This document shows, in pieces, positions 20,990-59,600 of a stretch of 64,000 nt of DNA. The stretch is from Barthelona sp. PCE (taxonomy: Eukaryota): NCBI GenBank assembly GCA_040285745.1, contig JAUFOR010000002.1, positions 1,240,001 through 1,304,000 on the forward strand, read 5' to 3'. How positions within the stretch are numbered: the stretch's first letter is position 1; each line of letters starts with the position of its first letter. A program made the position numbers and the translations under genes. The notes under the pieces are model-generated. The model was not told the DNA's origin. It made no database searches and was given only the letters and a program-made list of their open reading frames with translations.

Positions 20990-22819
20990 TTATTGCAAGA
21001 ATATTGACTTAATTTGTGTCTGTGTAAACTCTGTGTTACATGTGGGACATGTCCTAGATCGTTTCGATCGTAATGTAGCAACACATTGACGACAAAAACA
21101 ATGACCACAATTTGACAGAACCACATTTTTCTCGTTCTTATAATCACACAATGAACAGCGGACCATGTGCGTGAGTGTATCAAGAGCACGTTGTGTATTT
21201 TCATCAACCGTAGTAACAGAATCAGGATCAATACCCTTATGACGAAGAATAGATTCAAGCCTACTGATTTTCTCCCTGAAATTCTCACGTTCAGTCGTAA
21301 TTTGCATCATCTCCTGTGTAAGAACATCAAAACGTTCATTAAATGTTTTGTTCTTTGATTCACTAATCTTCAATTCACTCTTCAGACTGTTAATTTTCGC
21401 TTCGCTCTTCTGGAACAGCTTCTCGAACTGTTTAATGTGTTTAGAATTGCGCTCTTGTTTAGTCTTTAGTGCATCATAATGCTCAACCTTCTTCTTAAAC
21501 TTGTTCTGTGTGTTGTCCAATCTGAGCTTCAGCTCCTCAATTAACTGGTTCTTACCAACCAATTCTTCATGTAACTCACTATTTGCTTTGGCTAAATCTA
21601 TCTTCTCAGTCTCCAACTTTGTGTAGTTTTCGAGGATACTCTTTAACTTATTCTCAGATTGCAGCAACCGGTTGTTAAGGCGTAACATCTCTTGTGCGTT
21701 AGTCTCATATATTTCACTGACTTCATCAAGTTCATTGAGTAGACCATCCTCACCTTCAACGCGACGTAACTTACACATCATTGTGAACTGTTTGGAGAGC
21801 TCCTTAACTTGCACGTTGATAGCCTCGTATTGTGCTGTAATATTACTGACCTCTTTTTCCATATCAAGGCTAAGATCATTCTCCGGAATGGCTTCCATCC
21901 CCTTATTACTTTGTTCTTTTTTATGAGATGAAATGAGCTTTAGTGCTTCACTCTTAAGAGTTGAAATACGTTCATTGATTGTAGCATTCAAATTCTTTAC
22001 CTTTTCGTCAAATACTTCTCTCATAAGATCTATCTCTGCATCTTTTTGTTTTAACTCGCTCTCAAGAACATCATTCTGCGATTTAAGCTCCTTGATCATA
22101 AGATTCTGTTCACGTTCACGATCTCCTTTATGCTCTTGCTCAAAAAACTCTCCATTCAACAACTTCTTGGTTTGCAAGAACTTTTCTGTATGAATAAAAG
22201 CGGCAAACATCTTGTTCTTTTCGTTCAGTTGATGTTGGAGACGTTCATGTTCTTCCTTCAAATTGGAATAATCCTCTGTCTTAAAAACATTGATAGTATT
22301 TTGGGGGACACGTTCAACAACTTCCTTCGTCTCCAATTGACGAATGATCTTCTTGTTCTCCGTTTGAAGACTCATAATCTCCTGTTTCTGACCCTGAACT
22401 CGTTTAGAAATCTGAATTATAGTGTGTTGTTGGCGTTTATCGACCTCATAGTTCCCCAGTGCAGTGGCAATACGGTCAAAGTCAAACAAGTTATCAATGT
22501 CTGACACGAGGTTCTTAACAGCCTGAATTGCTTCACCAACCTCTGTGGATAAAGCAGCTTGATTAGGGGATCCCATCATAAGTTTGGTGTAAAGAGCAGT
22601 GTGTTCTTTGACCTGACCGCTCGACAGGAACTTTAACTGAATCAGAGCACGTGCAAACCAATCCAATGAATCAGAAAGCTTCTTATTCTCAGCCTCAAGC
22701 GTTTTTACCTTGGTTTTGGACTGGTTCAGATCGTGTTTGTGTTCCAAAAGGCACTGCCGAAGACCGAAAAGCGCCTGATGTTCAATTTCATACTTATCGT
22801 CCGATTGAACAGCTTCCAT
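20990..22819 (-). CDS. BRE1: BRE1-like RING E3 ubiquitin ligase
   Basis: Long coiled coil and terminal C3HC4 RING (CSLC...CGHCFCRQC...RSRTCPTC...IFL). Confidence 0.75.
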   Translation of the reverse strand: MEAVQSDDKYEIEHQALFGLRQCLLEHKHDLNQSKTKVKTLEAENKKLSDSLDWFARALIQLKFLSSGQVKEHTALYTKLMMGSPNQAALSTEVGEAIQAVKNLVSDIDNLFDFDRIATALGNYEVDKRQQHTIIQISKRVQGQKQEIMSLQTENKKIIRQLETKEVVERVPQNTINVFKTEDYSNLKEEHERLQHQLNEKNKMFAAFIHTEKFLQTKKLLNGEFFEQEHKGDREREQNLMIKELKSQNDVLESELKQKDAEIDLMREVFDEKVKNLNATINERISTLKSEALKLISSHKKEQSNKGMEAIPENDLSLDMEKEVSNITAQYEAINVQVKELSKQFTMMCKLRRVEGEDGLLNELDEVSEIYETNAQEMLRLNNRLLQSENKLKSILENYTKLETEKIDLAKANSELHEELVGKNQLIEELKLRLDNTQNKFKKKVEHYDALKTKQERNSKHIKQFEKLFQKSEAKINSLKSELKISESKNKTFNERFDVLTQEMMQITTERENFREKISRLESILRHKGIDPDSVTTVDENTQRALDTLTHMVRCSLCDYKNEKNVVLSNCGHCFCRQCVATLRSKRSRTCPTCNTEFTQTQIKSIFLQ

Positions 22820-23207: not shown

Positions 23208-24158
23208 ATGCCCACAATCGTTGAACATGATGACAGCGTAAATGAACTTAATGCTGTGCCATTAAATTTTAGTATAGATAAAAGGATGACTTATAACAAC
23301 TCAATGTCTTCAAACGGTCGGTATTTGGTTATACGCCAGGATGAATTTATTGTTTTTGAATACTCAGAAGAGAATAAGTGTTATGAGAAACTTTCATCAA
23401 TCAATTGCGATAAAGACGTTGTCTGGTGTTTTATGACCAATGATGGGTATGTTGTTCTAGGTGATCACTACTCCAACAACGTGTACGACGGTATCAGTGG
23501 TAAACTAACTGTCGAAACCGATATGTATGGTTTTGAGGAAGAAGCTTATGGATTATGCGTGTCCAATACCCTTGTCAATGGCTACATATGTGCCGCTGGT
23601 ATGTGCGGAGAGCTTCTGATTATGCAGTGTTTATTAGAAGATGAAACATGTCGCCTTTCAGTAATGACAGAAGACGTTTTCTGCACTGAAAGTGGTAGTG
23701 ATGATGCACCTGAAACCGGATACAGCTCTGTACATATTGCAGAGGATAACAGACATGTTTTTGGACTTTCTGACGAAAACCAAGTATACGTGTATTGTAT
23801 CGATACTGAAGAGATGATTGTACGACAGGTGGATACATCTGTAGATGGCTGCTTTGTATCAGGATCAGTAGACACTGGATTTTGGTTGAGCAGCTATAAT
23901 TGCAAAACACTCTATTATATCGACCCTGAATTCAACTTTGGCACATGCATAGAACGTGAAAATGCTAAATTTGTCACTTACAACAAAGACTATACCCATG
24001 GAAAATACGTAATTGATGGTAATATTGTAACGATTGATTTGAATAGCTCTGAGCAAGTTTCCGTAGTCCCAATTGGTGTTGAAGGACATCGCTGTATTGA
24101 TGGCAGCATATATTATTGTGTCGACGGTGTATCTTATATTGTAAGATGTGGCTTCTAG
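23208..24158 (+). CDS. Hypothetical beta-rich (propeller-like) protein; paralog of 49976-50833
   Basis: First ATG at 23208; shares the LGD(H/D)Y...EE..G..VS...C..G.L pattern with ORF 49976. Confidence 0.65.
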   Translation: MPTIVEHDDSVNELNAVPLNFSIDKRMTYNNSMSSNGRYLVIRQDEFIVFEYSEENKCYEKLSSINCDKDVVWCFMTNDGYVVLGDHYSNNVYDGISGKLTVETDMYGFEEEAYGLCVSNTLVNGYICAAGMCGELLIMQCLLEDETCRLSVMTEDVFCTESGSDDAPETGYSSVHIAEDNRHVFGLSDENQVYVYCIDTEEMIVRQVDTSVDGCFVSGSVDTGFWLSSYNCKTLYYIDPEFNFGTCIERENAKFVTYNKDYTHGKYVIDGNIVTIDLNSSEQVSVVPIGVEGHRCIDGSIYYCVDGVSYIVRCGF

Positions 24159-24182
24159 TAAACTTAATGTATTGATGGGTAA

Positions 24183-24629
24183 CTAATCAGGAACTGCAAA
24201 ACAATAATATAGAGCTTCTTTCCTCAATGATTCAACAAAGGAAGGATTGGCAAACTTAATAATATACACACAATCAACAAAATCTTCTAGATCATAGGTA
24301 TCTAGAGAATCATTAAAGTTTGGGTAATCTGGCTTGGAATGAGATGAACTGATCAGCTGTATCTGTGAAATTACCTGATTCATGATCTGATAGGCCCATT
24401 TCTCATTGTGATAAGCGTGTGTTCGGAAATCTTCGCGAGATATCTGTTGTGAAAGGCACCATGGAAGATCTTTGCTATTTTCATGGACAATCATATCCGC
24501 GTAAGCCCTAAGAAACCATAATTTTGTATTGGGAATGGTGTTAAAATCTGGATGAGCGCTTATAATATTTAGCTTCACAACATCATCATTTATCTCATCT
24601 GTGATGACCTCAAATATAGGAATGAACAT
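24183..24629 (-). CDS. Hypothetical protein
   Basis: 148-aa ATG-initiated ORF that fills the gap and converges on the previous gene. Confidence 0.5.
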   Translation of the reverse strand: MFIPIFEVITDEINDDVVKLNIISAHPDFNTIPNTKLWFLRAYADMIVHENSKDLPWCLSQQISREDFRTHAYHNEKWAYQIMNQVISQIQLISSSHSKPDYPNFNDSLDTYDLEDFVDCVYIIKFANPSFVESLRKEALYYCFAVPD

Positions 24630-24810
24630 CTTGAGCCAATTTAAAAAAAAAGGCGATGCAAAAGAGAAGATAAAACAGAATAAAAGTGTTTACTCGAATA
24701 AATAGCGAAGAATTAAGCTGGCCTTACACATGGTACACATTTTGAGAACCATACAAGTGTATAAAGAAGGCAATTGAAAATCAACAAATCAAGAAGAAAA
24801 TTCAATATTC

Positions 24811-24943
24811 GGTGACATACAGGCGCTAGCCTTCAGACTTTATACTTGAGGTAGTAAACAGCGGAGGGGGACGAAGCGAACCGTCATGTGTAGTAGGTGT
24901 CCGTAGGACCCGATACGGTTTTTCTTACCTTTTTCAAAAAAAA
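24811..24943 (+). repeat. Split direct repeat A1
   Basis: Identical to 30661-30794 apart from the terminal A-run (8 vs 9 A). Confidence 0.97.
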
Positions 24944-24980
24944 TCTTACTTTAGTATTGCTGCGCAAGAAATTAATTGCA

Positions 24981-25346
24981 ATGACATACTTTAGAGCGGA
25001 AAGGCAAACGAAAGAACAAGTTGCGCGCGCTATCCAGCATAGATGCGAGACGTATATTGCGCGCCTGAGTGTCGTGGTTATGGAGACCTTGTGCAAGGTC
25101 CACGAGGCGGATCCCGCCGGTAAAGCCCACTTGATTGAGGCTCTCCCGAGTTACGGGTGCGGCGAGTACGCCGACGTAATGCTCTCACCGTGCGTGTTGA
25201 GCGAGGACTTCCGGGGGTGGTTACAAGCATTGGGCGAAGATGAAAGTCAACAAGGTGTTGACAAGGTCCTTCCAGCAATTTCCTTTAGCCTAGAGAGGTT
25301 TAGGGAACTTGCAAATCTTTTGGCATGCGCCCATCCAAGTCATTAG
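24981..25346 (+). CDS. Retrotransposon ORF0, unknown function (121 aa)
   Basis: First ATG after A1 (MTYFRAERQ...); overlaps the start of ORF1 by 22 nt. Confidence 0.5.
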   Translation: MTYFRAERQTKEQVARAIQHRCETYIARLSVVVMETLCKVHEADPAGKAHLIEALPSYGCGEYADVMLSPCVLSEDFRGWLQALGEDESQQGVDKVLPAISFSLERFRELANLLACAHPSH

Positions 25347-26476
25347 CCAAGAATATTGAGGAGTCGGACATTAGAGGAGTCCGGGAGATGATTAGAGCTG
25401 CCGAAAATCACTGGAAGGCAGCTCCGGCTCTCATAACGCAGGAACTGGATGCGTTCAGGGCAGCAAAGAGGGAGGCCGACAAGATCGAGGGAATATCGGA
25501 CGTCGACAAGAAACAGCTCATCAAGACGATTACGCAACAGGTAACGCATGCGAAGGAGCAGGCGCTGAACGAGACGCGGAAGCAGACAATGGCCGCGTGG
25601 GAAGAAGAACCATCCGATGACGAGACCGACACCCAGCACACGTCTTCGAACGCAGGAATGAACACCGCCATGCAGATCGCAAGGGACGCTACCGCTTTGG
25701 TGAGCGAGACGATGAAAGAGGCCAGGCAGAGTAGGATGAGAGCCACAACCTATAACGAACCTTTCGATGCGGGCATCCAACAAGACAAACTACTCAGGAA
25801 GGTCAAACACCAATGGCAAAGAGGTCTGACATACGATAAGTTTACTGCCGCCATGGACAAGTTCCTCGAGGCGGAGATAAAGCGCAACCCCACGATCTTC
25901 GCTGGCGATATTGATCTCGGGCTCTGGAAAGCGGACGACGTCCTTCCGGACGCGTTTGTTGAGGAGGTGACGGACGACCACAAGGATAATTGGTTCCGCG
26001 AGTGGCAAATTCGTCTGAGGGACTTCAAGACGATCTACGAGGACAAGGTCGGATCCCAGTATGAACACGAGTGGCAAACCAAGCGTTTGTACTTGCTGAT
26101 GGAAGCCGCAGCGGAAATGGCGTTGGGAGACACTCTCCTACTAATCGGCAAGCTGTATGAGGAACGGCCACACCTCATCCCGACCTTCATCGCTGCCGTC
26201 TCTCCATATGGTCCCAGCCGGGCCAACAGGGCGTCAGGTATCTACAACGACGAACTCAACGTCGACCACGTGCCTGACAACTGGGTTGACGAGAATCGCG
26301 TGAAGCAATTCCTCACTAAGACGCTGGGAGTCGGTAGCTCCGGCATCATGGTCGAGTTTGACCCCACCGCCACCAAGAAGGCGTTCAACCATTCCACGAG
26401 AGCCCCCAAGCGCACGCACCGTCCTAAGACGCAAAAGAAGAAACAAGCGTTTAGCGCCAAAGAGGAGGAGAAGTGA
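25325..26476 (+). CDS. Retrotransposon ORF1, putative Gag-like protein
   Basis: 383 aa, helical with a basic C-terminus; assigned by position upstream of RT. Confidence 0.7.
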   Translation: MRPSKSLAKNIEESDIRGVREMIRAAENHWKAAPALITQELDAFRAAKREADKIEGISDVDKKQLIKTITQQVTHAKEQALNETRKQTMAAWEEEPSDDETDTQHTSSNAGMNTAMQIARDATALVSETMKEARQSRMRATTYNEPFDAGIQQDKLLRKVKHQWQRGLTYDKFTAAMDKFLEAEIKRNPTIFAGDIDLGLWKADDVLPDAFVEEVTDDHKDNWFREWQIRLRDFKTIYEDKVGSQYEHEWQTKRLYLLMEAAAEMALGDTLLLIGKLYEERPHLIPTFIAAVSPYGPSRANRASGIYNDELNVDHVPDNWVDENRVKQFLTKTLGVGSSGIMVEFDPTATKKAFNHSTRAPKRTHRPKTQKKKQAFSAKEEEK

Positions 26477-28834
26477 AATCGTTCGTCTCCCCCCGCGCGC
26501 GATAGTAAATATCTATCCGACAAGGGCGTGGGAGACGCAAATGATCCCAATGCGGTCACAGCGCTCGCGGACAGGGTCGGCGAGCTCTCCATCGAGAACG
26601 TCAAATTGAAGAAGGAGATCAAGAGCCTCAAGAAGGAAATCCCTAAGAAGCAACTCAAAGCCGCGAAGATGGAACTTCGCGCAGCTACCAAACTCGTGGA
26701 GCTCGAAGACAAAAGACTAGAAGCCATCAAAGCTCGGGAAAGGAGCACACAGAAAACAAAAGCACCTGAGGACGTTAAACGGGATAAGCCCCGTAAGGAG
26801 AAAGCACCAACAGCTACTAGCGTGCAGAAGATGATCTCCAAGGAGATCAACAAACTCAAACACGAGGTTGTAGATGAGCGGAATAACGTCCAAATCTCAA
26901 GAAATCCGAAGGAGGTAGTCGGCACAGACACCATGCAGTGGCCGGCCGCGGCGCCACCAGTAGCTCTGCTGAAGCACCTCCCACCCGACATCTTCCAGAA
27001 GGGCGGCCCAAGTCAACGAGTACTCAAAGAGGTGGTCCTAGGGGTTACCGGAACATGGGATATCCTCGGAACAGACCAGATGAAGATCAATTCAGCCGAC
27101 ACGCCCACGGAACAGTTCGTTAGGGACGCCGCGCGCGTCGCTGGCCTCAGCTGCGAAGAAATTGAGAAGACAGTCCGACTGCTCGTGACTGAGGGCGTAA
27201 CGCGCGACATGGTCGTTATCGAAGGAAAGAAGCCTCGCAGGCAGGAGCCAGTACGTCACTGGTACAAAGACGACGCTGTCGAATTGAACCTGGCCGTAAC
27301 CGCGCTCAAAAGTAAGGACCTGATCAAAGAGGTCCCCATCGAAGAGATCGAGGACGAACGAAGGGCATTCATTTCCATCGGCGCGGTCCCGAAGAATGCA
27401 GAACCGGACTCAAACAACATGTTCGCTCCGACGCAGAAGTTCGAATTTGACGTCACATCGCCGGACAACGAGCACAGGGTTATCGTCGACTGTACTAACA
27501 CGAACTCTATGTTCGCCAACATTCCAATGGAACTCATCAAAACCCACTCTCTCGAGATTGTCATGGGTGGCAATCTCATGTATTCCGTCGACGCAAAGGA
27601 TGGTTTCACGCTCATTCCACTGGACGAAGAGCTACAAAAACTGTTCTCATTTACACACGAAGGTAAGCTTTATCAATGCACTAGAATGCCGTTCGGAGTT
27701 TCATTCGGCCCGGCCATCTTCGCCCGCATGATGAACCTGGCAACGACCGCAATGCGTGCGTTGGGATTCAACATCTGGAGCTACGTCGACGACGCTTTCG
27801 GATGGGAACGATCCCTCAGCAAAGCGAGGAACTCGATGATGCTGTTCATAATCATCGCGTCGAAACTTGGCATCAAGCTAAACTACAAAAAGTCCGTCAG
27901 TCCTTCGTACAAATTGGACATCATCGGCTACACGCTGAGCACCGACGACCAGTCTGACGGCGGCCGGCTAGTCTCAACAATTAGACCGTCGGACAAGAAC
28001 ATCAGAAAGATCAGAGAGATGGCTCGCGTAATGCGAAATAGAATCGACACAGCAGAACAAATCCCTGTCAGGGACATCATGAAGCTCGATGGCAAACTTG
28101 TATCATTTGCCAACGCCTCGACGATTCTTCAGCGGGTTCACCTACAGCTACAAGCAGTACTGAAGGATCTCGACGCCCAATACGATAACGCGATATTTGA
28201 CTCGAGCAGGAACAAGGGCCTACGCCTTCTCCTACCTCTTCCACTAGCCGACGCACTCACGAGCATCGTTGAATGTAACTTTGAACCGAAGACGCTGAGC
28301 TGCGGTAGAGCTAAGGTAACATTACTGAGCGACGCCATGAAGGACCAGAAACATATAGGCATTGGAGCGAAGGCATACCCAGACGACGACCAAGAGCTCT
28401 CGTTCGAACTTCTCCACAGGATGGGAGTGAACGAGCAAGGAGCAAGAAGGATGTTGACACTTCTCGACGATCTGCCAGAACAGGAAAGAGTAGACATCGA
28501 GCAGAACACTGTCGCAACAATCGCGGAGCAGGAGATGGTACCGATCGTCGAGCTACTCAAGACTAAGGGCAGACAGCTGAGGAACACCGAAGTCGTCTGG
28601 TATTGCGACAACACGAACGTATGCGCCGCTGTCGCGAAGGGCTACAGCAAAAACAAGGTCCTCAACAAGGGGGGCCCGCATAGTGATGGAACTGTGCGAA
28701 ATGTGGGACGTGATCGTCACACCAATCTACATCAACTCAGAACAGAATTATCTTCCAGACAGCATCTCAAGAGGAGCATCGTCGGAGTCGTGGACCAACT
28801 CTACGACATTCGTGCACGAGATTCTCCCAGCTAG
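26477..28834 (+). CDS. Reverse transcriptase plus N-terminal part of RNase H
   Basis: RVIVDC, MYSVDAKDGF, YQCTRMPFGVSFGPAIF, SYVDD, LGIKLNYKKS; RNase H motifs LLSDA, AEQE, WYCDN. The frame is open from the ORF1 TGA; first ATG at 26669. Confidence 0.93.
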   Translation, partial: NRSSPPARDSKYLSDKGVGDANDPNAVTALADRVGELSIENVKLKKEIKSLKKEIPKKQLKAAKMELRAATKLVELEDKRLEAIKARERSTQKTKAPEDVKRDKPRKEKAPTATSVQKMISKEINKLKHEVVDERNNVQISRNPKEVVGTDTMQWPAAAPPVALLKHLPPDIFQKGGPSQRVLKEVVLGVTGTWDILGTDQMKINSADTPTEQFVRDAARVAGLSCEEIEKTVRLLVTEGVTRDMVVIEGKKPRRQEPVRHWYKDDAVELNLAVTALKSKDLIKEVPIEEIEDERRAFISIGAVPKNAEPDSNNMFAPTQKFEFDVTSPDNEHRVIVDCTNTNSMFANIPMELIKTHSLEIVMGGNLMYSVDAKDGFTLIPLDEELQKLFSFTHEGKLYQCTRMPFGVSFGPAIFARMMNLATTAMRALGFNIWSYVDDAFGWERSLSKARNSMMLFIIIASKLGIKLNYKKSVSPSYKLDIIGYTLSTDDQSDGGRLVSTIRPSDKNIRKIREMARVMRNRIDTAEQIPVRDIMKLDGKLVSFANASTILQRVHLQLQAVLKDLDAQYDNAIFDSSRNKGLRLLLPLPLADALTSIVECNFEPKTLSCGRAKVTLLSDAMKDQKHIGIGAKAYPDDDQELSFELLHRMGVNEQGARRMLTLLDDLPEQERVDIEQNTVATIAEQEMVPIVELLKTKGRQLRNTEVVWYCDNTNVCAAVAKGYSKNKVLNKGGPHSDGTVRNVGRDRHTNLHQLRTELSSRQHLKRSIVGVVDQLYDIRARDSPS

Positions 28835-30644
28835 GGTAATCGAGTTCAAGACATCCGTCGTCGCAAGCCTCTACGAACCTGGACACATCCCAGCACTGTA
28901 CGTCCGCGGTTTCCAGCCCACAAAAGGAAAGTCCAGGAGATCAACGAAAGCCGCACATGTGACAAGACAATGTCTCGGACAAGACCTTATCTCTCTAGGC
29001 GAGTATGACCTCAAACGGAATGCGCTCAAGGTCGACAATGTTGCGAACGGGACTGCACACTGTACAGGTAAGCTCAAAATCGTCGAAGGATTCGATGACA
29101 CAAGATACACCGTCCCTCTATCGAATATGGCGATCATCACGAGAGACAACGAAAGAATCGAGGCAACAGTTCCGACTTACTCCGCAGCCACAAGCTTAGA
29201 GATAGTCATTCTCAAAGTGTGCAGAACCGGCGCGGAAGTAGATGTGATCCTCCCCGGACCACTCCCGTCTTGCCCATTGTGGGCTACAATCACACAAAAG
29301 ACCATCCCATTAAGTGATGGATCCATAAAGATAAGAGTTACGAGAGAAAAGGTTCTCGGCGGCGAACCCGAGGACTACAAGCCCGCTGGAGCACGCACTC
29401 AGAACCCGGTACAGGTACGGGGCAAATCACTATCTCTGGCAGATCTGTTCGCCATCCCACCGTCGATGGACTACGACGAAGTGCTCGAACTCTTTCTGAA
29501 AAAAGGAGCGCACCAACCAACGAGGAACATGCTACATCGCTTCGGGAACTTCGTTCAAAAGGTGCACAGCACAGAAATAGTGGACGTCGCATGCCCAGGA
29601 AACGAAAAGAGACTTGAAGAGCTGATAATCGAGTTCAGATTCAGACTCGAACAGGAAACAAAATCGAAGAGGCGTGCGAACGGCGACACCACCGAAGTAT
29701 GGAGGTACACCTCAGATACGATTAACAGTTACATTTTCCACCTGCGTAAAGGACTGCTGGTTCTGAAAATGTTCATCACCGACAAGAAATCTCTCCTCAC
29801 GACCGAAGAACTCGAGCAACTCGTCCAGCTTAGGGCGGCAGTAATCAGATGCACACTGAGCGAGAGCTCAGAAACACAGAAATTCGCCATCAGCACGTCA
29901 GCAATCAGATTCCTGGCGGCAAGAGAGATTGAAGAGCTTAAAGCACTGGTCCAGGAAGGTACCACGAAGAAGAAGGCCCTTCAGAAGCTAAACAAAGTAA
30001 GAAGAAGAATTGCTATGATGTCATCAATGTACAACTTAGGATGCAGAGCGGCGTCTCTTGCCGCAGTCAAGACCCACCAAATTGAAGTCTCAAAATCCGG
30101 CGATGTCACGGTAACGCTGGACAAAGTGAAGAACCAACAGGGTCGACCAACCAGCTACATGATCCCCAGAAACGTATGGGAGCTGGGCACACTGCACGAC
30201 TATTTAAACGACGCTGTGCAAAGAGCAAAAGAAGGAGGTAAAGAGTTTATTTTCTCGAACGGCGGAGAAGCCCAGAGCGTCTCGAATGCATTAAACACCA
30301 TGTTCCGAGATTACAACGAGAAAATCAAGCAATCTGACCACAAGAATGCAAGCAAATTCAGAGTATTCAAAATGACAGCTCATGGCCTTAGAGCCGGCAG
30401 GGCAAAAGAGATAGCACAACATCCAGATGCGACTGTACGAGTATCAGCGCAAGGAATGGGTCTCTGGAAGGATGTGAAGGCGATGAACCTTGACTATCTC
30501 ACGAAACCACTATTGACGTTTGAGGAACGAGAGGTGTTGAGTCCGATGGAATTGGAAGGATGGGTTTTAGGCCACTTCCCGGACGAAACACCCTCTACAC
30601 GTGAAGGCGAGCCTTCCCACGTGAGCGTTCCCCGACGTCAATAA
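28683..30644 (+). CDS. RNase H C-terminus, degenerate methyltransferase-like region and tyrosine recombinase
   Basis: IYINSEQNYLPDSISR (RNase H end); YR catalytic set LGCRAAS (R), DKVKN (K), AHGLR (HxxR), MGLW (W), LDY (Y). Confidence 0.9.
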   Translation: MMELCEMWDVIVTPIYINSEQNYLPDSISRGASSESWTNSTTFVHEILPARVIEFKTSVVASLYEPGHIPALYVRGFQPTKGKSRRSTKAAHVTRQCLGQDLISLGEYDLKRNALKVDNVANGTAHCTGKLKIVEGFDDTRYTVPLSNMAIITRDNERIEATVPTYSAATSLEIVILKVCRTGAEVDVILPGPLPSCPLWATITQKTIPLSDGSIKIRVTREKVLGGEPEDYKPAGARTQNPVQVRGKSLSLADLFAIPPSMDYDEVLELFLKKGAHQPTRNMLHRFGNFVQKVHSTEIVDVACPGNEKRLEELIIEFRFRLEQETKSKRRANGDTTEVWRYTSDTINSYIFHLRKGLLVLKMFITDKKSLLTTEELEQLVQLRAAVIRCTLSESSETQKFAISTSAIRFLAAREIEELKALVQEGTTKKKALQKLNKVRRRIAMMSSMYNLGCRAASLAAVKTHQIEVSKSGDVTVTLDKVKNQQGRPTSYMIPRNVWELGTLHDYLNDAVQRAKEGGKEFIFSNGGEAQSVSNALNTMFRDYNEKIKQSDHKNASKFRVFKMTAHGLRAGRAKEIAQHPDATVRVSAQGMGLWKDVKAMNLDYLTKPLLTFEEREVLSPMELEGWVLGHFPDETPSTREGEPSHVSVPRRQ

Positions 30645-30660
30645 ACCTACTTCAGTATAA
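30562..30660 (+). repeat. Split direct repeat B1 (99 bp); contains the YR stop codon and AATAAA
   Basis: Identical to 30795-30893. Confidence 0.97.
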
Positions 30661-30794
30661 GGTGACATACAGGCGCTAGCCTTCAGACTTTATACTTGAG
30701 GTAGTAAACAGCGGAGGGGGACGAAGCGAACCGTCATGTGTAGTAGGTGTCCGTAGGACCCGATACGGTTTTTCTTACCTTTTTCAAAAAAAAA
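30661..30794 (+). repeat. Split direct repeat A2
   Basis: Copy of 24811-24943 directly abutting B1. Confidence 0.97.
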
Positions 30795-30893
30795 GGGTTT
30801 TAGGCCACTTCCCGGACGAAACACCCTCTACACGTGAAGGCGAGCCTTCCCACGTGAGCGTTCCCCGACGTCAATAAACCTACTTCAGTATAA
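30795..30893 (+). repeat. Split direct repeat B2 (99 bp), right end of the element
   Basis: Copy of 30562-30660. Confidence 0.97.
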
Positions 30894-31036
30894 ATTTACA
30901 GATTCATCTGCTACTGTATGATTCCCCTGTACCAGCCACAATGAATCATAAATCTGATGAAGGAACAGCTTCTGTAACAATTTTCACGGATTCAATCAAA
31001 AATTTTTTCAATTAAAGGTATAAGGTATATATTATA

Positions 31037-31600
31037 TCACTGATATTTAATCTTTTTGGAAGATATTTTGGAACCTACAATAATTGTAACAATTCCAATA
31101 AGCAAACCAATGATTGCTCCGATAAAAAGTTGCAAAACACTATGACAACCAAGATAATACCGAGAATAACACACAAACAGGCTCAATCCGATACTCCCTA
31201 CATATAATAAATTGTGATACATAAATGCGAAAAATGGTTTTTGACTGACAGAAGATTTTGCCAATCTGTGAGTCCCTAGATCGTATATAAAGATAGCTAA
31301 CCAGCAGAACATGAACTGTGCGTGGTCTGAAGGCATCCCATATCCTTCATTAACACATAGATCACGACCACTTGATGCGACACGTTCTCCTTTTAGTACA
31401 TCCTTAATAATACCATTGAGCATTGTGTTCAGTAGAAGAATAGCTGCTGTGCGCAGATATTTTAAGTCAAACTTCAGAAATCCTTGATAAAGTGCTGCAC
31501 CAAACAAAAAAGCCGGTATTATACTCCCAAAACATGCTAAAAACGATATAAAATCTCCGTCATCGTACACAAAGTACGTTAATTTGAACGGAACAATCAT
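31037..31600 (-). CDS. DOLPP1: Dolichyldiphosphatase (PAP2 family)
   Basis: PFKLTYFVYDDGD start, GYGMPSDHAQFM, SRYYLGCHS...QLFIG, TM helices. Confidence 0.82.
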   Translation of the reverse strand: MIVPFKLTYFVYDDGDFISFLACFGSIIPAFLFGAALYQGFLKFDLKYLRTAAILLLNTMLNGIIKDVLKGERVASSGRDLCVNEGYGMPSDHAQFMFCWLAIFIYDLGTHRLAKSSVSQKPFFAFMYHNLLYVGSIGLSLFVCYSRYYLGCHSVLQLFIGAIIGLLIGIVTIIVGSKISSKKIKYQ

Positions 31601-34046: not shown

Positions 34047-35744
34047 TTATTCACCACGCTTGATTTCAAAAGGCCACATAAGAATACCACCCATCATAAC
34101 GATGACGTTGTCGAAGCCATAACGACGAAGCATGGTCTGAGCCTGATAAGCACGGGCACTAACCTTACAGAAAATGATAATTGGCTTGTCACGGGGTAAC
34201 TCTTCATGACGAGTATGCAGCTGACCAAGAATAATGTGATCTGCCTGAGGAATACGCATCATTTTACGTTCACCAGGTGTACGAACATCAAGGAAAACAA
34301 AGTCTTTCTCCTCATCAAGCATCTTCTTGACTTCAAGGTTACGGACAACCTTAACACGGTTCTCTAAAATGTTCTTTGCAATGTTACAGGCTACGGCAAG
34401 GTTATCCATTGCCTTGGAGAAAGGCGGAGAGTAGCAGAAATCAGCCATGGCAACTTGGTCAATTGTGGCTTTCATCGTCATGGCCATAACAGCAACGTCA
34501 ACGTGCTTGACACCGTTGCTTGATGGACCGACAGTACTGAAACCAATAAGCATGCGGGATTCATTCTCAACAATCAACTTTGTGAATAAAGGTTTCATAC
34601 CTTTCATAAACCACACACGATCAGGTCCAGGGCTGAGAACAACAGTATAAGCAACACCTCTCCTCTCGGCCTCTTTCTCGCTAAGACCAGTACGACAACA
34701 ACAAAAATCAAAGACCTTACAGACTGCACTTCCAAGAACACCAGTCATTTTCTCATCCTGACCTGTCAAATGTGAGCCGATGACATGACCAGCACGGTTG
34801 GAAACGGAACCGAGAGGGGCATATACCTGTTCACCGGTAATGATATTGGTAACTAAAGCAACATCACCACCAGCATAGATGTTGGGATCGGAAGTCCTGC
34901 AGAACTCATCAACGAGAATACCACCTTTAGCATGACATGTGATACCGCATTCCTTAGCGATAGCATCGTTAGGACGAACACCAACAGACATGATTACAAG
35001 ACTGGCATCAATGGTGTTTTCTTCACCGAGTTTAATACGCTTAACGACACCGTCTTCTCCCTCAAATCCCTTGCAGAATGTGTTGAGATGGATTTTAACA
35101 CCCTTTGATTTAACATGACGACGAACTAATAGTTCCATATCCTTATCCATCATTGTGAGGATTTGATCCATACCTTCAACAATTGTAATGTTACGGAAAC
35201 CCATCTCGTAGAACTCAGAAGCCATCTCCATTCCGATAAGACCTGCTCCGACAACAACAACGGGGTAAGTTTCCTTCTCCTCTTCAGGAACACTCTTCAG
35301 GTGCTCAACGAGGGGATGGGCCTCTTCATATCCCTTAACAACGTGTACACCCTTGAGATCAGCACCCTCAATAGGGGGTACAAAAGGGCGTGAACCGGTT
35401 GCGATAACAAGCTTATCGTAGTCCATCTCAAAAACATTACCCTCCTTGAGATTCTTGACCTGAAGCTTCATGTTCTGTCTATCAATGGAGACAACTTCGT
35501 GCTCCATGAGCGTATCAACCATTTTGGCCTTCTTTAACCACATGGGAGTTCTCTCGACACCAACAGGGGTCATTGTCAAAAGAGGTACTCTGTCGCTTGC
35601 AATCAGGTAGGGTAAGCCACATGTGGCGGGTGTGATATAGCTTCTTTTCTCAATAATTGTGACATCAGCATTATCAACAGCACGTGCAAAACGTGAGGCA
35701 GCTCGAGGTCCACAGGCGGATGCTCCAATACAGACAACTTTCAT
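34047..35744 (-). CDS. CoA-disulfide reductase/NADH oxidase family flavoprotein with C-terminal rhodanese domain
   Basis: FAD-binding start, redox Cys in ATCGLPY, LVIATGS, GAGLIGME, IYAGGD, CYSPPFS; rhodanese FLDVRTPGE...FCKVSAR...GGILMW. Confidence 0.92.
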   Translation of the reverse strand: MKVVCIGASACGPRAASRFARAVDNADVTIIEKRSYITPATCGLPYLIASDRVPLLTMTPVGVERTPMWLKKAKMVDTLMEHEVVSIDRQNMKLQVKNLKEGNVFEMDYDKLVIATGSRPFVPPIEGADLKGVHVVKGYEEAHPLVEHLKSVPEEEKETYPVVVVGAGLIGMEMASEFYEMGFRNITIVEGMDQILTMMDKDMELLVRRHVKSKGVKIHLNTFCKGFEGEDGVVKRIKLGEENTIDASLVIMSVGVRPNDAIAKECGITCHAKGGILVDEFCRTSDPNIYAGGDVALVTNIITGEQVYAPLGSVSNRAGHVIGSHLTGQDEKMTGVLGSAVCKVFDFCCCRTGLSEKEAERRGVAYTVVLSPGPDRVWFMKGMKPLFTKLIVENESRMLIGFSTVGPSSNGVKHVDVAVMAMTMKATIDQVAMADFCYSPPFSKAMDNLAVACNIAKNILENRVKVVRNLEVKKMLDEEKDFVFLDVRTPGERKMMRIPQADHIILGQLHTRHEELPRDKPIIIFCKVSARAYQAQTMLRRYGFDNVIVMMGGILMWPFEIKRGE

Positions 35745-36636
35745 TACAACGTAAAAAGTGAATAGAAACTTGAAACGATAAGGGAAGAAAAATATAATTC
35801 AATAGGATTGAGAAGTAAAGACTTCCATACATCAGTCTCTTCGCTTTCAGTGAATATAAGCACATTTATACTAATGAAAGAAGCTTATATAGCTTAGAAA
35901 ATCAGATAGCATAATATGGTTAACAACCAGCTTTATTGATCTCTTTTTCGGCTATGATCATACGTATTCTGCAGTTTTTCATCAAAAACAGGTTAAAAAA
36001 GAATGAAATATCAAAAACCAGTTTTCCGGTGAAATATCATTTAACATCTTGATATGCACATAGCACACGAGTTTAAATTCCTTTTCATGGTAAAGCACAG
36101 CTGAAAAACATTTTAAGAATGGTTAAATATGTAAAAACTCACTTCGCAAATATACAGTAAATAAGATAGCTTGACTGTGTATAACTTACATCAAATGGCT
36201 GCTGGGGAGTTTAACTTGGAGAAAAATTGTGCAAAATTGCTCATCAACTTCATTTGGGCTTTTCACATGTTATTTTGATGGTTGTACGAAAATCAGCGTT
36301 CATAACATTTATAAAAAACTGTGAATATTGTTAAATGAACAACCTGCATTTTCCTCACCTCACACACCTTAACCATTTATTGTCAAATACATAACAAAAA
36401 TCAGGTATATACCTTCAAACCATGCTTTATTCACTGAATTTGAAAAGAATAAGCCCGAGAAAAAGAAGAAAAAATCAATAGCGACTCCAACTTGCTGCTA
36501 TCATGGTTTCTGTTTCCATTTTAGTTTCGACAGTGTTTTTTTAGTTTTGGCAGTGTAAACGACGCCCCCGCGGTGCACATCGCGAAACCGGAGCCGTTAG
36601 GTCTGAACGAAGATACAGAAACTATTTATTCTAGAT

Positions 36637-37791
36637 CTACTCCTCGGCGGGGCGAGCGGGCTCCTCGACATCTTCGGTCTCCTTGGGGGTGGGGTAGAAG
36701 AAACCAGGGACCTTGAGGGACTTATTGTAAATAAGAGTAGCGATGACGAGCACGATGAAACCGAAGAGCTCAAGATAAGAGTAGATAGTCCATGCCTCAC
36801 CGAAGTCCTTGGAAATCCAGTAGTAGATACCGAGATCGACAACCCAGATAGCGACAGTACGGAGAGCCTCGAAGAGAGTTCTGTGAGTGGCGGAAAGAGC
36901 GCTGGTGATCATCATACCGAACATGTTAAGACCAAGGATACAGCCGAAGTAGATGCCGGTGAAGACCTTGATATGAAAGTTGGTTCTGAGAACGTAGAAG
37001 TCATCAATTACGTCTTCACCCCAGGACTTGTGCTTGAACAATTGGGCAAGAGGAAGGAAGACGACAAGACAGAGAATGGATCCCCAGCCACCTTCACAGC
37101 CAACGACAAGAGCATCGGGAGCATCATGGGACTTGAGAAGGAAGCGCTCGCAGATGATCTGAGAGGCCTGGATGAACTGAGAAATAACAACGAGGAGGCA
37201 GCCAATGAGCTGAGCAAAACCATCGTTATCGTTCTCATCAGCACCAGCGCCGGAGAGGACTGAGGAGTAACCAACGAAGAAAACACCGACGAAAGCAAGA
37301 ATAACACCAAACCACTGGGCACCAATCTTCTTCTCAGTTTTCAACTGCTTGGCGAAGAAAACTTCAAGAATGGCGGCGAAGGCGATCATGACAGCACGAA
37401 GGCACTGCATGACGGAAACGCTGATCAAAACGAGACCGAAGCTCATAACCGTGGTGGCAAGGAGATCAAGAGTGGCGGGAATGGCAACAAGGAATGCAAC
37501 GATGGGCTCTGGGACGCCAGGAACCTTCTCGGACTTGTCGAAGTTGTCGCCTAGGAGGGGCTGAGCCTCACGATGCTTCTTCTTCAACTTCTTCATGTCG
37601 ATAGCGTTCTTGATCAGGGCAAGTGACATAGCAAGGAACATAATCAATGTTTGGAACCAAGGCCTCTCAAAAAAAACGGTTAAGCCGTGGGAATTAACAA
37701 CCTTCGTTTGCATGAGGATCTTGGCGCTGATCATCGTGCCTGTTCCAAAAAGGAAGAAGAATGGAAGTATAATTGACAGAGGAAGACCCAT
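36637..37791 (-). CDS. SLC35F6-like drug/metabolite (nucleotide-sugar) transporter
   Basis: About 10 TM helices; FERPWFQTLIMFLAM, AIPATLDL, VGCEGGWG, LSATHRTLFEALRT. Confidence 0.85.
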   Translation of the reverse strand: MGLPLSIILPFFFLFGTGTMISAKILMQTKVVNSHGLTVFFERPWFQTLIMFLAMSLALIKNAIDMKKLKKKHREAQPLLGDNFDKSEKVPGVPEPIVAFLVAIPATLDLLATTVMSFGLVLISVSVMQCLRAVMIAFAAILEVFFAKQLKTEKKIGAQWFGVILAFVGVFFVGYSSVLSGAGADENDNDGFAQLIGCLLVVISQFIQASQIICERFLLKSHDAPDALVVGCEGGWGSILCLVVFLPLAQLFKHKSWGEDVIDDFYVLRTNFHIKVFTGIYFGCILGLNMFGMMITSALSATHRTLFEALRTVAIWVVDLGIYYWISKDFGEAWTIYSYLELFGFIVLVIATLIYNKSLKVPGFFYPTPKETEDVEEPARPAEE

Positions 37792-56632: not shown

Positions 56633-59600
56633 TTATTCGGTGGTATTCTTTAATGTAGGCAATTTTTTGAAGATACTCTCAATAGGAACTATGAAATTTT
56701 TATGCAAGCTCTTTGGAATAATAACTTCAGGGTTATCAAAGCCCAACAATCCAAGAATCTTATTGAAATCTGCCTTTGCACCGCCAATAGCATCCAATCT
56801 AGGAGCTAAATTAAAGCTACGCACTTCATAGTGGAAAGGTAAAACCTGTTTGATCGATTTGACCTTATCAGCTTCATTCTCTTCTCCCTTTTCTCTTGTT
56901 TGTAACTCTTCCACGTACGATGATACGGTGCTACGGAAAAGATCGTAAAGATTCTTGTTCAGACTGACCTTTATAGCATCTTCAAAGTGTGATTCAAAAG
57001 CAACAACAACATCTATGCAATCAGTGGGTTCCTTCTGCACTGATATCATCTTCATTTCACCATTCGGGATCCGGAGAATGCTCGTAGCTGTGTGGTCGGA
57101 CAATCTCTCAGACATTTGTCGGGCAACTGGGTTGTTTGCAGCAAGCATGCTCAGGAAAACATCATTAATTACCAGAAGACAGTCCCTGGCAATGTGGTTT
57201 TGAAGCGTGTAAGCGTTAAGTTCCATCTCGAACCCTTCTATCATAACACTCACCCATTGCCTACTGTATATGTCTGCTGGGAAAATATTTGCACGCACGT
57301 TACGTATGTTTGCAGTGAAAAAGAACGACATAGAATCATAAAACTCATCCTTCAGTGTTTCAGCAGCAGCTTGTGTGGTTATTTCATGAATAATAGATTC
57401 ATCACTCAATGATGGCGATGGAGACTGCGATGGAGACGAAGAACTGGCGTATCTGAACCCAATTTCTTCAGTTGCCTTGTTGATGTACATTTCTTGTATG
57501 CTCTGCAAAACATCCAGCAAAGAAGGAACAGTTTGCGCGCTGAGTACAATGTCGATCGTATCTATATCCAACAAAGCAATGTGTTCATAGATGTGCTCTC
57601 CTACTGCCTCAACAACCTCATCGGGCATGTCTGCGATTAAAACAACGATTCCATTGTTCGTGAAACTTAACAGGTGGTGTAATCTGTATTCTAGAACACC
57701 GTTGATACTGTCAATAGAAAAGCGTGAACCTGACTCTCCGCGATTGGGGTACATGAACCGAGAAAAGTTGAGATTGGCGAACTGGAATCCGCCCTTAAGT
57801 GCACCCATAGCCTCCAATTCGATGTGCGCGAGCATAAAGTTCAGGTAGAGTTTCGACTCGTCAAAAAGACGGGCAGTAAACACGGGCTGCGAAAATGTGA
57901 GGGAGACCTCACCAACCTTTGAGCCCAAATCAGCACTAAGACGGATATGTTTCAAATTACAAGATACAACAACAGTCTTAAAGGCTTTCTTCCTCTTCCT
58001 CTTCTTTTTCCTCTTCTTGTGCTTCTTTCGTTTCTTCTTCAACTGCTGGGGAGGAGATTTGATGGCAACTAGCTTCTTATCATGTTCAAGCTTCTCGTTA
58101 ACCTCAGCAATGTCGTCGACGGCGGGTTTGTAATTCTCAATCATGGTCTTCAGTAACTCAATGTTGGGGAGCTCGACGTTGCTTTCCAGAGAACCGAGCT
58201 CGGTTGTAATGATGATATGGGGATTCTCAGTAATTCCTGTGCACATCTGGACGTTTGTCTTAAAACCATTAATCTTACTCTTGAAGAAGGTCGTCAACGA
58301 ACGATGCACCCTCGATGACAACTGGCACGTGATATTGGGTGCCTCAATCGTTGCAGCTGAGATGACTGCCCCTGTTGCAAGTGTAGACGAAAATGTCAGC
58401 GCTGTACGTTTCAGATCAACAGAGAGTGTTGTAGATACGTCTTCGGCTGGAATTGATACGCCAACACGATCTATATACAGAGCGACTGCGAAGGAAGAAT
58501 TCGACGTTGACATTAAGCTCTTCTGCTCACGCATCCTACGTGTCTGTACTTCTAGTTTCAGTTTCTTTTTCTGCTTTTCCTTTGTCTTCGACACTTCATA
58601 ATTGTAAAGCAACTGGTTAGTTAACTCCGCTGTCGCATGCGTCTCCCATGTGCTGACAGAGTCAACCATCTGATGGAATAAATCGTTACCGTTTGGAATC
58701 TCAGACAAGATACTAACAGTATTAATAACATAATCTTTAAACTGCGGTGTGAAATCGATAACAAACTTTGAAATACGAACCATACAGCCAAAATTCAGAG
58801 GTATATCAACTGCATTCGAGAATTGACCGTTCATAATAGTTACAGGGAATATTATCTCCTGAACAACATCCTCAGTATCTTCACGGCAAACAACAGCTAT
58901 CTTATCAATTTGAATATTGTAGTTGATAACAATCGTCTTCTTTGGCGTCGTGCTTAAGGAAACAAGCACAGAATTAATTGGATCACCGGTCTCCTGGTCC
59001 ATCGACACATCAGTAGCAGTGGTGATTGTTACACCAGACTTTCCACTGAGAGTAGATCTGTTATCGATCGAACCCACGCCCAACACATTCATCTGCTTGC
59101 GGACAAATAACGAGTCGAGCTGCCACTGCGAAAGAATCACCTTGAAGTGCTTCAGATGCGCTGGCAATACATTAAATATGAGGGGACGGCAGTTAAGAAC
59201 AGATGTTAACGAGAGCTCGTTTTCTGTCATTGGACCGCTAATTTTAACACTCAGACCACTGAAATCAACAAAAACTCCGCTGTTTGTGAGTGCGGTCAGC
59301 TGTGATACACGTAATAACGTAGTAAGTATGGACTTTTTCAGATCATGTCTTCTTCGACCAACAATGCTAAGATCCCGTAAGTTGATCTCCAGGATGTGGG
59401 GATCATTAGTTACGTCATCAAGCGGTGAAACACTTGGGAGGAATACCCCGATTGTTCGTAACTCGACCCCAAAACCAATGGACTTGAGGATGCTCGACGT
59501 TGAGCTCTTTGTCTTCTCCATCATGTCGTTAATGGCCTGCTGTGTCTCCGCAAACGAAGCACCAGGTGGTAATGAACTGACGACACTCTTCTGCTTGTTA

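Follow-up and report, generated by a model that had tools for sequence, protein, structure and literature searches.

A 64,000-nucleotide (nt) stretch of the genome of the metamonad Barthelona sp. PCE (assembly GCA_040285745.1, contig JAUFOR010000002.1, positions 1,240,001 to 1,304,000 of the forward strand), here called the window and numbered from its first letter, contains an insertion of 6.1 kilobases (kb) at 24811-30893. Judged from its anatomy, this insertion is a tyrosine-recombinase retrotransposon with split direct repeats, arranged in the order A1, open reading frames (ORFs), B1-A2-B2, in which the ORFs encode a gag-like protein, a reverse transcriptase (RT), and a putative tyrosine recombinase. 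We report that repeat B is a degenerate complement of repeat A and that, in the sense RNA, the two are predicted to form a pair of adjacent hairpins to which A2 is common.

The element stands out from its surroundings by its guanine-cytosine (GC) content, 45-53% against 37-43% in the surrounding stretch, which is gene-dense and apparently intron-poor. The flank 5' of A1 is unlike the sequence that precedes A2. A target-site duplication is absent from the one copy available: the flanks read ...TTCAATATTC on the left and ATTTACAGAT... on the right, with no bases repeated at both ends. No inverted repeat joining the element ends was detected by a repeat finder (seed 11, minimum 25 nt), and the window holds no solo A-B unit. 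The host flank immediately left of A1 (24801-24810, ATTCAATATTC) matches the end of B (30651-30660, CTTCAGTATAA) at 7 of 11 positions; this likeness, seen at one insertion site, could mean target-site homology to the circle junction.

Repeats B and A are degenerate complements in the sense RNA

The initial annotation of this sequence had proposed that B1 and A2 pair through five nested helices (H1 to H5), with G-U pairs on the plus strand, to form a rod of about 200 nt. All five helices were found where they had been placed, in the minimum-free-energy fold of the plus strand of 30562-30761, and the five G-U pairs were confirmed, with a sixth identified at 30638/30711. In total, 55 pairs connect B to A in this fold, 29 of them G-C, 20 A-U, and 6 G-U. 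Its energy was -77.8 kcal/mol, compared with -58.5 ± 4.3 kcal/mol for shuffled sequences (z -4.45), and none of 200 shuffles was as stable. The minus strand reached -66.7 kcal/mol (z -1.01), a stability that 31 of 200 shuffles equaled. Hence, the comparison with shuffles that had been set in advance distinguished the plus strand, but not the minus strand, from its controls. The duplex of B against A taken alone gave a z of -4.16 on the plus strand (1 of 400 shuffles as stable) and of -1.51 on the minus strand (35 of 400).

We then compared the rod with natural sequence, using 25 shuffles for each control window. Among 74 plus-strand tiles covering 24062-31561, only the two windows overlapping the rod fell below a z of -3 (-4.35 and -5.43), and the next lowest tile was at -2.71. 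The minimum among 95 random windows elsewhere was -3.52, with none below -4. The difference between strands, z(plus) minus z(minus), amounted to -4.31 at the rod and to -0.18 ± 1.17 in the other 72 tiles (minimum, -2.76), a separation of ∼3.5 standard deviations.

The complementarity was weak when only Watson-Crick pairs were counted: B scored 20 against the reverse complement of A, while 1000 shuffles scored 14.8 ± 2.3 and reached 27 at most. The number of wobbles was not significant by itself either (6 G-U pairs versus 2 C-A mismatches in symmetric loops; binomial, about 0.14). With DNA energy parameters, neither strand of 30562-30761 was distinct from shuffles (plus strand, z -1.22; minus strand, z -0.13). 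Thus, of the two folding species that had been put forward, plus-strand RNA was borne out and single-stranded DNA, which folded no better than its shuffles, was not. A search of Rfam returned no match at E values up to 1. Together, these results confirm that the B-A complementarity is real and, as far as modeled energies go, that it favors RNA of the plus strand. As had been noticed at the outset, the degenerate reverse complementarity of B to A makes inverted repeats, likewise degenerate, of the two element ends, A1 and B2.

A2 is predicted to be shared between two adjacent hairpins

The single rod did not hold in the context of the full RNA. A continuous 200-nt rod was predicted only if the RNA was cut exactly at the first base of B1 and B2 was absent. 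With the real flanks, either 62 to 562 nt of upstream sequence or B2, the probability of helices H1 to H3 with B1 dropped to 0.00. H5/H5b kept a pair probability of 0.92-1.00 in every context tried, and that of H4 was 0.99 with B2 present and 0.45-0.64 without it. H2 and H3 paired with B2 instead (probabilities of 0.96 and 0.91, the same in four sequence contexts). The earlier proposal that A2 is able to pair with either copy of B was therefore supported, with H4 and H5 formed with B1 and H2 and H3 formed with B2. The stable form is predicted to consist of two adjacent hairpins that have A2 in common (Table 1).

Hairpin I was the more strand-specific of the two. The fold of 30624-30725 had an energy of -43.9 kcal/mol on the plus strand (z -7.33, 0 of 200 shuffles as stable) and of -27.9 kcal/mol on the minus strand (z -1.43, 20 of 200), and the minimum-energy structure made up 18.5% of the plus-strand ensemble. 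Its apex comprises the B/A junction and a 29-nt loop that contains a small hairpin (30671-82), the junction lying at the 5' edge of the loop. An internal loop places AAUAAA of B1 opposite AGUAAA of A2. Hairpin II is capped by a U5/A9 mini-helix at the A/B junction; the fold of 30728-30842 had an energy of -39.0 kcal/mol on the plus strand (z -3.47, 0 of 200 shuffles) and of -36.9 kcal/mol on the minus strand (z -2.44, 2 of 200).

Table 1. Repeats, coding regions, motifs, and predicted RNA structures of the element (window coordinates)
Feature	Position	Strand	Remarks
Repeat A1	24811-24943	+	Left end of the element; 133 nt, 133/133 identity to A2
Repeat B1	30562-30660	+	99 nt, 99/99 identity to B2
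Repeat A2	30661-30793	+	133 nt, followed by a single extra A at 30794
Repeat B2	30795-30893	+	Right end of the element; 99 nt, 99/99 identity to B1
Hairpin I (predicted)	30626-30723	+	Near arm of A2 (positions 30-63) paired with the last third of B1
Hairpin II (predicted)	30731-30840	+	A2 positions 71-93 (far arm) paired with the first third of B2
5' part of B1, alternative lower rod (predicted)	30562-30607	+	Helices 1-3 with 30731-30761; probability 0.90-0.98 only in an RNA that begins at 30562 and lacks B2
AATAAA in B1	30640-30645	+	Overlaps the recombinase stop codon TAA (30642-44); B1 ends 15 nt farther on
AATAAA in B2	30873-30878	+	Element ends 15 nt farther on, at 30893
AGTAAA in A (positions 43-48)	24853-24858; second copy, 30703-30708	+	[AT][AG]TAAA class
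CTTTTTC, 3' end of A	24929-24935; second copy, 30779-30785	+	Host-like, promoter-like motif; 46 nt before the ATG of ORF1
ORF1, gag-like	24981-26476	+	No Pfam family; frame broken at a T-run near 25320
GT..AG stretch between gag and pol	26473-26507	+	35 nt; contains an in-frame TGA at 26474-76
Reverse transcriptase ORF	26528-28834	+	RNase H region by position; frame broken at a G-run near 28670
Last ORF	28683-30644	+	Conserved unknown region, then putative tyrosine recombinase; final 27 codons and stop inside B1

The repeats contain candidate gene-end and promoter motifs

Hexamers of the class [AT][AG]TAAA occur in both repeats. Within 60 nt past the stop codon, this motif was found for 16 of the 25 host ORFs in the window (20 occurrences versus 2.6 expected). 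Across 16 host ORFs totaling 30,852 nt, it occurred 5 times on the sense strand, where shuffles predicted 43, and 75 times on the antisense strand. The exclusion of in-frame TAA could explain only about a third of this approximately nine-fold depletion. The 5.6-kb interior of the element contains a single occurrence versus 4.05 expected, a count as low as that of 38 of 500 shuffles. One host ORF (20990-22819) likewise has an AATAAA that overlaps its stop codon (caataaAAC). Judged from these sequence counts, [AT][AG]TAAA is a likely candidate for the poly(A) or termination signal of the host.

The copies of this motif in the 3' region of the element are predicted to differ in accessibility. The hexamer in B1 was unpaired with a probability of 0.95 and the 15 nt that follow it with a probability of 0.07. 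The corresponding 15 nt past the B2 hexamer had an unpaired probability of 0.86, or 0.71 when the flank was included, and those past AGUAAA of A2 had one of 0.27.

The other motif, CTTTTT[CG], was present within 80 nt upstream of 7 of the 25 host ORF starts (8 occurrences versus 0.88 expected), an enrichment that is inflated by the AT-richness of intergenic DNA and that concerns a motif picked after inspection. At host genes, it often has an A directly after it and lies 12-43 nt before the start codon. We consider it a candidate core promoter or initiator motif of the host. Its location at the 3' end of A1 hints at, without demonstrating, a transcription start downstream of the pairing region.

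Possible roles of the B-A pairing

We tentatively propose, with a rough probability of 0.4, that the B-A pairing is a cis-acting device of the sense RNA, by which the first poly(A) site is masked and B1-A2 is thereby retained in the genomic RNA. As AAUAAA coincides with the recombinase stop codon and B ends 15 nt farther on, the end of B resembles a host-type cleavage and polyadenylation site. Since B1 and B2 are identical, discrimination between the two sites must come from outside them. Once transcribed, A2 would pair with B1 and bury the stretch between the B1 hexamer and the cleavage point, and the same pairing would bury the region past AGUAAA of A2 itself. Processing would then pass to B2, whose last third lacks a free partner and would stay open. 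Use of the B1 site would yield a messenger RNA without A, and read-through would yield a replicative RNA with an intact B1-A2 junction; given a transcription start close to the end of A1, that junction would hold the sole full copy of A. Such a model would explain why the plus strand is preferred, why the signals lie within hairpin I, and why a second B is needed. It draws on four computed results, namely the structure, its plus-strand preference, the motif statistics, and the predicted accessibility.

The poly(A) hairpin in the repeated R region of human immunodeficiency virus type 1 (HIV-1) is a case of retroviral poly(A) site control by RNA structure. As in HIV-1, the terminal repeats of the Barthelona element put identical poly(A) signals twice in the transcript, a local hairpin would cover the region from signal to cleavage point, and context would pick the copy used, with the Barthelona side of the likeness being a prediction. 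In contrast to HIV-1, the masked copy would be the upstream one of two 3'-proximal copies, and the masking strand would be provided by a different repeat, A2, situated 30-60 nt downstream.

Several points weigh against masking. Where transcription starts, which sites are cleaved, how the hairpin affects cleavage, and that read-through takes place are all points that we infer, and the identity of the poly(A) signal derives from 25 ORFs in one window. The structural claim rests on thermodynamic prediction for a single family whose copies are ∼99% identical, and the energies are those of a nearest-neighbor model rather than of probing. The B1 hexamer itself is predicted to be open (0.95), with only the stretch downstream of it buried. 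In addition, masking needs hairpin I alone, which leaves unexplained both why the complementarity runs over all 99 nt of B and why the rod arm begins at the first base of B and ends at its last. Finally, A2 could in principle also mask B2 in part at equilibrium.

The exact coincidence of the 5' arm of the rod with B (30562 to 30660) would be accounted for by a role in replication, as would the fact that the B/A junction, with its circle-junction sequence, borders the apical loop. Located at the ends of the transcript, A1 and B2 would pair mutually or with the internal B1-A2 junction and so unite the ends of the RNA or complementary DNA (cDNA), the junction serving as a same-strand splint for template switching or end joining that re-creates the B/A circle junction. 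With B approximating a reverse complement of A, the junction copy inside the element, itself direct, would also be a degenerate inverted copy, and an internal complementary region is essential for DIRS-1 retrotransposition according to the accessible part of the study describing it (PMC7192593). We nonetheless hold this role to be doubtful. It requires positions 30-101 of A1 in the RNA, but the host-like upstream motif is at the 3' end of A; the same requirement, with CTTTTTC at 24929-35, makes circularization through A1:B2 pairing, an idea of the initial annotation, possible but doubtful. Moreover, pairs of the sense RNA turn into C-A mismatches in minus-strand cDNA, for which folding was at chance (z -1.01 with RNA parameters and -0.13 with DNA parameters), and the 5' leader (24930-25080) has no complementarity to B1, A2, or B2 (z +1.41, -0.18, and +1.58, respectively). 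A function in the RNA other than masking or replication (a packaging or dimerization signal for gag, an RT binding site, or a Dicer substrate), or an origin as an unselected by-product, seems unlikely to us. Structured 3' regions do such jobs in other retroelements, and no data link the hairpins to one particular role, but Rfam offered no match up to an E value of 1, and the z of -7.33 and well-defined fold of hairpin I (18.5% of the ensemble) make a chance origin unlikely.

The core sites of tyrosine recombinases are inverted repeats that flank the crossover, with spacers of 6-8 base pairs (bp). The structure might accordingly be a feature of the DNA, with palindromes at the B/A and A/B junctions acting as binding or crossover sites of the recombinase or persisting, without a role in RNA, as decayed inverted terminal repeats (ITRs) of the DIRS1 type. 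Both repeat junctions are indeed at or beside the apexes of the hairpins, and on its minus strand hairpin II scores almost as well (z -2.44, 2 of 200 shuffles). However, the two strands of hairpin I are 16 kcal/mol apart (z -7.33 versus -1.43), whereas a DNA repeat should not be strand-specific. Complementarity limited to Watson-Crick pairs was near chance, DNA folds were at chance, and the apical arms are separated by 29 nt instead of the 6-8 bp of core-site spacers. We thus rate an origin at the DNA level as very unlikely.

More specific mechanisms were considered and rejected. Self-priming of cDNA from the 3' end of B2 on A2 would give a product lacking A positions 30-133. Cyclization between the 5' leader and the 3' region had no complementarity signal (z +1.41, -0.18, and +1.58). 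A folded single-stranded DNA hairpin as the substrate of the recombinase was dismissed on the DNA folds (z -1.22 and -0.13).

To our knowledge, the replication of split-direct-repeat elements (Ngaro, PAT, and VIPER) is known only from paper models, in which the A and B sequences are given no role. A strand-specific RNA structure built from both types of repeat would provide a concrete and testable reason for the layout, since under masking the RNA must carry the internal B1-A2 junction and bypass one end signal, the first of an identical pair. Were this pairing also to occur in other families, it would explain how the inverted-repeat architecture of DIRS1 and the direct-repeat architecture could interconvert. 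The analysis also supplies candidate motifs for poly(A) signals and promoters in a metamonad lineage that has received little study.

Comparison with known elements

From its anatomy, and not from a tree, we classify the element as a Ngaro-type split-direct-repeat retrotransposon of the DIRS order. It has the RT domain of that order and no target-site duplication, and it shares with Ngaro the organization A1-[ORFs]-B1A2B2, internal repeats downstream of the recombinase, and the lack of a detected methyltransferase. It falls outside the PAT-like definition, as the split direct repeats are present but a methyltransferase was undetected. It also falls outside the DIRS1-like definition, as it has neither ITRs nor an inverted internal complementary region, but only a degenerate complementarity that depends on G-U pairs. 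The Ngaros of Cafeteria burkhardae are laid out A1-[ORFs]-B1A2B2, as described in the accessible part of PMC8547959. Further resemblances to Ngaros, as far as that text goes, are a length of ∼6 kb, the succession of gag-like, RT/RNase H, and tyrosine recombinase regions with internal repeats after the recombinase, the lack of a detected methyltransferase, and a GC content above that of the surrounding DNA. The Barthelona element differs in that its proteins are very isolated (3 weak gypsy-like matches for the RT; 4 matches for the recombinase ORF, 2 of them from the same organism) and in that A and B are hidden complements, predicted to form strand-specific RNA hairpins. In the open literature searched, with subscription papers and supplements outside the search, neither pairing of A with B nor an RNA structure was described for Ngaro, PAT, or VIPER.

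VIPER of Trypanosoma cruzi has the same order, A1...B1-A2-B2, with repeat pairs that are 100% identical, and its A2+B2 unit exists as a separate short element, SIRE, according to the accessible part of PMC6681497. No A-B pairing is reported for VIPER in that part of the text, the lineage and proteins are different, and the Barthelona window shows no solo A-B unit comparable to SIRE.

Like DIRS-1 and DIRS1-like elements, the Barthelona element carries the circle junction once more internally, immediately ahead of the right terminal repeat (accessible parts of PMC7192593 and PMC3266345), and its ends are mutually inverted complements, although only degenerately so. The tips of DIRS1-like inverted repeats are themselves only 50-85% complementary, as stated in the available text of PMC3266345. 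The internal copy in Barthelona is direct and full-length (B1, A2) instead of an inverted copy of 85-130 nt, there is no long exact inverted repeat between the ends, and pairing is favored in the sense RNA, whereas the DIRS-1 model, as far as its description is accessible, needs the cDNA strand. The only hairpin mentioned in the accessible part of PMC7192593 is that of DIRS-1.

The initial annotation had seen in these ends a link between ITR-type and split-direct-repeat elements, an argument that is logically sound and rests on one family. In the portion of their article that is accessible, Szitenberg et al. state that conversion of split direct to inverted repeats needs intermediate forms that "are not observed" (PMC4157794). 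The Barthelona element might be such an intermediate between the two terminal architectures, its B1-A2 repeating the circle junction both directly and, imperfectly, in inverted orientation and acting as a same-strand splint at the RNA level, but we think this quite unlikely.

Proteins, copies, and relatives of the element

The RT ORF matched the Pfam family RVT_1 (E 1.1e-14, 55 bits, cut-off 29.6), and no Pfam match to RNase H was obtained in it. The last ORF matched Phage_integrase with an E value of 8.1e-4 and 19.6 bits, which is under the cut-off of 27.1, and this family was not detected when whole polyproteins were scanned with Pfam. Family 1, that of the element, and family 2 do not differ at the recombinase residues R135, H247, R250, W275, and Y285, and a protein-atlas search gave a lead in the same direction, with PF00589 on 19 of 30 matches (top score, 0.97). 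An AlphaFold model of the recombinase had a predicted local distance difference test (pLDDT) score of 39.5, and a sequence search of the PDB gave no relevant match. Pfam scans of the element proteins revealed no rve (integrase) or protease family, and no methyltransferase family was found at E values up to 0.05 in P0010 or P0015, a level at which a divergent domain may still be present. The 287-amino-acid (aa) region between RNase H and the recombinase had no convincing protein-atlas match (best, 0.86; recognition, 1590).

Five hypothetical proteins of Barthelona sp. PCE on record are ∼99% identical to the ORFs of the element. Compared with the other recorded copies, the element has one T fewer in the T-run at ∼25320 and one G more in the G-run at ∼28670, each of which shifts the frame; these frameshifts could be genuine defects or could stem from homopolymer errors in the assembly. 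In a tblastn alignment of P0010, residues 1-115 lie in frame 3 and residues from 114 onward lie in frame 2, which corresponds to the frame break in ORF1. All five family-1 gene models (P0006 and P0010-P0013) skip the 35-nt stretch at 26473-26507 to give ...EEENKYLSDKG...; either pol is expressed through a mini-intron or a read-through stop codon has been bridged by the gene predictor. In the gene model P0013, an ABC-transporter-like protein encoded farther downstream is joined to the recombinase tail at a point within B. The model breaks after ...EPSH, at the B sequence CAC/GTGAGC (the slash marks the break), which is splice-donor-like.

A sister family in the same organism, represented by P0015, encodes gag, RT, and recombinase in 1836 aa that are 26-29% identical to the element proteins, and it also matches the RT profile (E 4.5e-9). 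The recombinase of P0015 stops about where B starts in family 1. Since the recombinase of the sister family lacks an equivalent of the 27-residue tail that B1 encodes, coding hardly constrains B.

Low-depth pieces from sequencing runs X1 and X2 were 99-100% identical to the element; they varied at 4 sites, all outside A and B, and left 30699-30935 uncovered. Related loci were confirmed in none of 95 candidate stretches from a viral set and in none of 80 and 99 from metagenomes. A word-index protein search with the RT returned 3 weak matches, which are gypsy-like and carry a protease or integrase. A HMMER search with the recombinase ORF returned 4 matches, 2 from the same organism and 2 weak ones, P0008 and P0009 (E 3.6e-4 and 5.9e-4). 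The word "retrotransposon" does not occur in the accessible part of the genome paper on Barthelona sp. PCE (PMC11316075).

Other features of the window

The random control window with the z of -3.52 (36161-36360; 25 shuffles, random strand) is situated between ORFs 34047-35744 and 36637-37791. The first of these, on the minus strand, encodes pyridine nucleotide-disulfide oxidoreductase and rhodanese domains, a bacterial-looking architecture amid eukaryotic genes. Another minus-strand ORF, 56633-63979, encodes 2448 aa and reaches the edge of the window.

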